Assembly: GCF_029227855.1 (NCBI RefSeq)
Contig: NZ_CP074356.1
Reading direction: 5' to 3' (one strand)
Source of the DNA: Escherichia coli
Lineage (GTDB): Bacteria > Pseudomonadota > Gammaproteobacteria > Enterobacterales > Enterobacteriaceae
Length of the DNA: 64,000 nt
Part shown: positions 4,553 through 4,581 of the stretch, one piece after another
Layout of the letters: every line of letters begins with the position of its first letter
Numbering within the stretch: the first letter of the stretch is position 1
Program-made: the position numbers and the translations under genes
Notes under the pieces: model-generated
The model's input: only the letters and a program-made list of their open reading frames with translations
The model's database searches: none
What the model was told of the DNA's origin: nothing

Positions 4553-4581
4553 ATAGTGTCCATCATTGTAATGGACACTAT
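4553..4581. repeat. perfect inverted repeat, 11-bp arms (atagtgtccat / atggacactat) with 7-nt loop, 34 bp downstream of the LRR gene stop
   Basis: Read directly from sequence; no following T-run, so not a classical intrinsic terminator. Confidence 0.6.

Follow-up and report, generated by a model that had tools for sequence, protein, structure and literature searches.

The perfect palindrome at positions 4553-4581 of the window, by which we mean the whole 64,000-nucleotide stretch of Escherichia coli chromosome analysed here, 100% identical to strain JNEC-KY178, is an unannotated case of a well-known kind of element, an ordinary mobile-element fossil. On the sequence comparisons described below, the segment 4503-4590 is very probably the left-end stub of a dead IS66-family IS, and this IS would be the source of the hairpin. 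The value of the assignment lies mainly in annotation and in the evolutionary history of the locus, and a specialist will find nothing surprising in it. The features on which the argument depends are the following:

856-2592, + strand: cvrA
3083-4519, + strand: LRR gene of 478 aa, type III effector-like LRR, the last 17 nt of which lie in the IS terminal repeat
4503-4590, + strand: probable IS66-family left-end relic (terminal inverted repeat and tnpA leader, IS nt 1-89), from BLAST, Smith-Waterman and alignments
4503-4530, + strand: IS66-type terminal inverted repeat (IRL) starting with GTAAGCG, delimited by IS insertions with unrelated flanks
4548-4554, + strand: upstream GGGAAAT, sharing 2 nt with the start of the left arm
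4553-4563, + strand: hairpin left arm, ATAGTGTCCAT, equivalent to IS nt 51-61
4564-4570, + strand: hairpin loop, CATTGTA, 7 nt
4571-4581, + strand: hairpin right arm, ATGGACACTAT, equivalent to IS nt ~70-80
4585-4591, + strand: downstream GGGAAAT, a degraded tnpA start region (GTGAAAC in the IS)
4626-4677, no strand assigned: REP-like imperfect hairpin, AGCCGGAT...ATCCGGCT (K-12 1239959-1240010), belonging to the backbone spacer and not an IS relic
4687-5757, - strand: dadX, convergent with the LRR gene
5767-7071, - strand: dadA

The description of a perfect hairpin with 11-bp arms 3' of the LRR stop codon, given in the initial annotation, is accurate, the two arms being 100% complementary around the 7-nt loop and the hairpin starting after a gap of 33 nt from the TAG stop (4517-4519). 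The stem is AT-rich, with G-C pairs at 4/11 positions, and its RNA is predicted to fold with -14.3 kcal/mol (z=-3.2) on the + strand and with -17.6 kcal/mol on the - strand, where it reaches 14 bp with a 3-nt loop (z=-6.0). A search of the 64-kb window for perfect hairpins (arms >=11 bp, loops 3-12 nt) returned five matches at four loci; Markov shuffles had a mean of 0.16 per 64 kb, and about 10% of them contained any. The palindrome pattern itself is single copy in the window, even with three mismatches allowed. A scan of Rfam 15 at a permissive E-value returned three chance-level matches to eukaryotic families (E >=1), none of them over the hairpin and none at or near a gathering score.

The IS66 identity emerges from several comparisons. 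When a 201-nt query was compared with plasmids by BLAST, window 4503-4590 matched an IS66-like element of Pantoea stewartii (78.9%, E=3e-11), with Shigella and Enterobacter variants as further matches, and a 56-nt query spanning the palindrome hit the locus in 4,234 E. coli genomes and gave weaker matches (85% over 41 nt) to multi-copy starts of genes annotated as 'IS66-like element accessory protein TnpA'. The nearest relative is a P. dispersa copy, of which nt 1-89 align with window 4503-4590 at ~84% identity; the Smith-Waterman score of the left part against the IS was 84, while shuffles scored 13.8+-2.1. In ISCro1, ATAATGTCCAT-CATTTTTA-ATGGACACTAT sits 50 nt inside the left terminus. Moreover, the first base of the homology, in the GTAAGCG at window 4503-4509, coincides with the exact IS terminus, as set by more than 30 independent ISCro1 and Pantoea insertions whose flanks are unrelated right up to GTAACCG/GTAAGCG. 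A pattern scan for TTCCGGGRAAATAGTGTCCAT in 100,044 species genomes found 82 copies in P. stewartii and single copies in P. dispersa, Ca. P. gossypiicola, Pantoea sp. BAV3049, Rahnella perminowiae and Erwinia typographi, all of them IS left ends; the one other match, in a deltaproteobacterial MAG, lacked the hairpin and is due to chance, and no Escherichia species other than E. coli matched among these genomes. The element closest to the relic is hugely expanded in P. stewartii CCUG 26359, with at least 82 copies, most of them at contig ends. A TnpA-based scan of viral contigs recovered nearly always identical ISCro1/P. stewartii copies, which defined IS termini and added little diversity.

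Like the IS66-family members compared (ISCro1 and the IS66-like elements of P. stewartii, P. dispersa, Erwinia typographi, Rahnella perminowiae and Serratia), the relic thus has the terminal GTAAGCG, ~89 nt of collinear left end and identical hairpin arms 50 nt from the terminus. Unlike them, it retains the first ~90 nt only, its tnpA start has been lost (GTG/ATG to GGG) and its loop is cut to 7 nt. In the alignment to the P. dispersa copy no part of the IS, on either strand, resembles the sequence beyond ~4590-4600, the homology possibly continuing across a 9-nt deletion to about 4600, and 4598-4690 scored at shuffle level against IS66 right ends; accordingly, we consider that a left-end stub is all that is present. 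Other hallmarks of an intact IS66 element are likewise absent: the 97 nt between the relic end and the dadX stop hold no transposase ORFs (tnpA, tnpB or tnpC), no right inverted repeat was found, and the flanks AATGAAAC and AACAAGTT, compared in the search for an 8-bp target-site duplication, differ. The proposal in the initial annotation that the palindrome might be a relic of the integration site of the islet is therefore correct as regards a relic, but not as regards an integration site, since the homology starts at an IS terminus and identifies an IS66 left end at the right edge of the islet.

A complete miniature IS66 element (MITE-like), with its IRL at 4503 and an IRR at 4680 (GGCTTAC), was also considered, and was attractive since at 4681 the megablast alignment to ST131-type genomes picks up again. 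This reading was ruled out: the right part is unlike IS66 right ends, 4640-4680 is a diverged backbone spacer with its REP-like hairpin, and no target duplication is present. In fact, the GGCTTAC at 4674-4680 aligns to the ST131 backbone spacer, and the segment is single-copy.

In living relatives the hairpin is part of the tnpA leader. In an alignment of 12 IS66-family left ends two blocks do not vary, the terminal GTAA.CG and the hairpin core TGTCCAT...GGACA, unlike the sequence between them, and no other block of the left end is as well conserved as the hairpin. Ten diverse elements have the hairpin at equal positions (IS nt ~51-80), with the helix paired in 96% of the alignment cells, and in the ISCro1, Pantoea, Erwinia, Rahnella and Serratia elements the tnpA start codon follows its end by 4-5 nt. 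Because TnpA begins with M/V-KHRTW in both ISCro1 and P. stewartii, the true tnpA start is the ATG/GTG located 5 nt past the right arm; the Serratia TnpA starts with MSERAW, 4 nt past it. The right arm of intact ISs carries a conserved (A/G)TGGACA(C/T) with an SD-like GGA, and the same motif precedes the start codon by 4-7 nt in distant members, whose TnpA is 38-46% identical. Its inverted partner stands at a variable distance in these distant members, leaving loops of 10, 15 or ~25 nt, and loops in close relatives measure 8-10 nt. In the distantly related element of Pantoea deleyi the ATGGACAC motif occurs twice in direct orientation. The motif is confined to the leader, none being present at the IS right end, and a promoter scan of the IS left ends predicted no sigma-70-like promoter. 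On an Enterobacter asburiae plasmid (NZ_CP074179), an IS3-family element lies inside the loop of the IS66 leader hairpin, directly past the left arm.

Based on this position and conservation, the original job of the hairpin was most likely the translational control of tnpA by sequestering its ribosome-binding region. An RNA hairpin occluding that region is favored by its location, by the SD-like GGA in the 3' arm and by the variable loop length. Leader fold-back hairpins of the IS10/IS50 type occlude the transposase ribosome-binding site and so silence read-through transcripts. The IS66 arrangement would be analogous in having a stem-loop beside the start codon of the first gene, with SD-like bases in the 3' arm, and differs in that the role in the IS66 clade is deduced from position and conservation and that in the relic the gene to be regulated is gone. 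The covariation is thin, since the helix is mostly invariant and shows one compensatory pair, G-C to A-U in Serratia and ETEC4061, with A.C intermediates in ISCro1 and Shigella, and a role in protein binding at the DNA level is nearly as good a fit. Our literature searches returned no description of an IS66 leader hairpin, and the strongly conserved leader hairpin of the ISCro1 clade may be regarded as a modest side-lead, a candidate element for the control of transposition. A broader proposal would be that this is a clade-wide regulatory element of ISCro1-type IS66 tnpA leaders, gating tnpA at its ribosome-binding site and guarding against activation by read-through, and that the fossil still acts in cis on the LRR mRNA or still binds TnpA from a resident ISCro1; taken as a whole, we regard it as unlikely.

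A DNA-level role could take the form of an operator for the helix-turn-helix TnpA of ISCro1-type IS66 elements, serving autoregulation and still bindable by TnpA from resident ISs. The motif is indeed nearly invariant and does not covary, the N-terminal region of TnpA is annotated as IS66 accessory protein and a neighboring gene class is HTH-like, the half-site of P. deleyi is found twice in direct orientation, and ISCro1 is common in E. coli, where a single genome can have as many as 18 matching places. However, the half-site spacing of 7-10 nt in close relatives and of 15 or ~25 nt in distant ones is hard to fit to a rigid dimeric operator, and the fixed distance between motif and start codon suits a role at the RNA or ribosome-binding site better, so that an operator appears very improbable.

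The stub is also part of a gene. The IS terminal repeat encodes the last LRR codons, (R)KRFM, together with the stop codon, and every full-length LRR homologue recovered ends in ...KRKRFM*, from which it follows that the junction between the LRR gene and the IS repeat is fixed in the family. The present C-terminus of this effector-like gene would thus be a creation of the IS. The family occurs in E. coli and Shigella only and is unusually divergent, its alleles sharing 77-96% identity with the query. Its members are 437-486 aa long, a range perhaps produced by acidic EKLEKLE/DLDDL repeats, and their last 60 aa hardly vary; distant relatives are limited to NEL/IpaH-type E3 ligases (32-34%).

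Counting among 5,426 complete E. coli genomes established three states of the cvrA-dadX locus: a full islet, an LRR-deleted islet and an ancestral compact spacer. The IS stub is present as one copy, at cvrA-dadX, in ~4,235 of these genomes (~78%), K-12 included. The whole LRR region is retained in 833 genomes, and in a further ~3,400, K-12 and O157 among them, the LRR gene is deleted except for at least its last ~75 nt, the stop codon and the IS stub. The remaining state, found in ~1,186 genomes (e.g. the ST131 strain 751), is a 56-nt cvrA-dadX spacer with neither LRR gene nor palindrome, containing one REP-like hairpin, CGCTGGAT-N14-ATCCAGCG. As the palindrome is also absent from the cvrA-dadX spacers of Salmonella enterica and Citrobacter koseri, which are short, we take the compact spacer to be ancestral and the islet, IS stub included, to be an insertion. 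The initial annotation would have been contradicted by a common REP-like backbone element present at the unoccupied site; the empty sites of E. coli, Salmonella and C. koseri hold no such palindrome. As for copies elsewhere, the stub is single-copy at the locus and additional matches in E. coli genomes are IS66 tnpA leaders.

A filler found in E. coli HH45 was considered as a common palindrome-less state and discarded, being limited to two genomes; it is the 56-nt ST131-type spacer that commonly represents the empty site. In HH45 and HH97, both from one study, this G+C-rich filler of ~125 nt replaces the palindrome region and may be an assembly artefact. The islet itself is ~2 kb long, and its edges (window 2604-2640 and 4640-4680) resemble the compact ST131-type REP-like hairpin, with CGCCGGATGCGATGCT on the left and GACGCTGCCTCCGATCCGGCT on the right; judging from this resemblance, it appears to lie inside an ancestral REP-like terminator or to have a duplicated half of that terminator on either side.

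The K-12 palindrome (1240055-1240083) has identical arms, the loop CCTTTTA and GGGCAAT downstream. The loop differs among E. coli strains (CATTGTA, CCTTTTA or TCTTTTA), and among five E. coli alleles variation is seen at 1/22 arm sites, 3/7 loop sites and 3/59 of the other non-loop sites of the relic. The lone arm change, in O157, gives a G.U pair on the + strand and an A.C mismatch on the - strand. The loop may be especially prone to mutation, five alleles being a small sample.

GGGAAAT does occur on both sides of the hairpin, as had been remarked at the outset, at 4548-4554 and 4585-4591. The upstream copy is conserved IS sequence, reading GGGRAAAT in the Pantoea, Erwinia and Rahnella ISs, and the downstream copy, the degraded tnpA start, is allele-specific. 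A target-site duplication was for these reasons rejected. Since the downstream copy reads GGGCAAT in K-12, O157 and other sampled strains, the direct repeat is coincidental.

With respect to transcription termination, the palindrome resembles a Rho-independent terminator in being a stable hairpin 3' of a stop codon, and differs from one in its missing U-tract, its few G-C pairs and the lack of a mapped 3' end at the K-12 equivalent. No U-run follows the hairpin on the + strand and only UUU on the - strand, and a terminator scan reported nothing at 4553-4590. Term-seq data for K-12 place 3' ends at 1240019/1240020 (+) only, and none at the palindrome, 1240055-1240083 (Adams et al. 2021, PMC7815308, supplement). 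The early judgement that a simple intrinsic terminator was unlikely is in accordance with these results. The 1240019/20 (+) end, labelled 'orphan' in that dataset (PMC7815308), falls 9-10 nt past the REP-like hairpin and is probably the true 3' end of the dadAX mRNA. With the K-12 3' ends beside the REP-like hairpin instead of at the palindrome, the latter is not the dadAX terminator. The REP-like hairpin shows no similarity to IS66 right ends, and 4640-4680 aligns to the ancestral compact ST131 spacer.

The same data bear on the possibility that the palindrome is part of a bidirectional terminator, or of a REP-type backbone element, common to the convergent LRR/cvrA and dadAX units. It does sit between convergent genes, as a short intergenic palindrome of the REP/BIME kind might, and in the dadX sense its stem extends to 14 bp followed by UUU. 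Nevertheless, the dadAX 3' end of K-12 lies ~35 nt upstream, at the REP-like hairpin, the terminator scan was empty, and the ancestral compact spacer lacks the palindrome altogether. In contrast to REP/BIME elements, moreover, the palindrome is AT-rich, has no GCCGGATG-type consensus and is multi-copy only within IS66 elements, the window holding one copy even at three mismatches; a genuine REP-like hairpin is located 45 nt away. This proposal is largely refuted, and we give it next to no credence.

Returning to the IS66 left-end stub, we hypothesize the following history. An IS66-family IS, nearest to the Pantoea/Erwinia/Rahnella elements and farther from ISCro1, would once have abutted the LRR gene by its left end, and the LRR reading frame would have come to terminate inside the IS terminal repeat. 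A later deletion would have taken tnpA, tnpB, tnpC and the right end, leaving ~90 bp, namely the IRL from 4503 and the tnpA leader with the hairpin at 4553-4581. The relic may persist since it is evolutionarily young enough and since perfect palindromes tend to self-maintain. In the present E. coli chromosome the hairpin is most likely without function, as the arms show no sign of special constraint among the five alleles and the hairpin is equally retained where the LRR gene is gone. That the arms are still perfect in most alleles could reflect constraint.

One function which such constraint could serve would be that of a 3' stabiliser or processing stop of the LRR mRNA, the hairpin having been co-opted as a barrier to 3'-to-5' exonucleases 33 nt past the stop, similarly to REP hairpins and other 3' stem-loops. 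Consistent with this, the hairpin is stable on the LRR sense strand (-14.3 kcal/mol), stands close downstream of the LRR stop codon and has arms intact in all five E. coli alleles, the only change being the O157 G.U pair on the + strand. However, its arms vary no less than the remaining relic, no terminator-like U-tract is present, and the ~3,400 genomes without the LRR gene keep it equally well; a stabilising role therefore seems quite unlikely, and a fossil without function is preferred.

The IS66-family stub of the cvrA-dadX region is unannotated in most E. coli genomes, and the K-12 record marks only an 'IS1414 (partial)' nearby. This annotation covers a ~70-bp segment 3' of cvrA (window 2640-2735, compared with K-12 NC_000913.3 ~1240195-1240285) which is inverted between this strain and K-12, is bounded by short tgcagg/cctgca inverted repeats and, in K-12, overlaps the start of the small gene ymgM. 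Elsewhere in the window, the other perfect hairpins lie at 26089-26115 (TACCGCGTCGA-N5-TCGACGCGGTA), at 34254-34291 (ATACTTTGTACAAT-N10-ATTGTACAAAGTAT, with 14-bp arms) and at 46743-46767, where a REP-like GGATGCGGCAT-CAC-ATGCCGCATCC is found.
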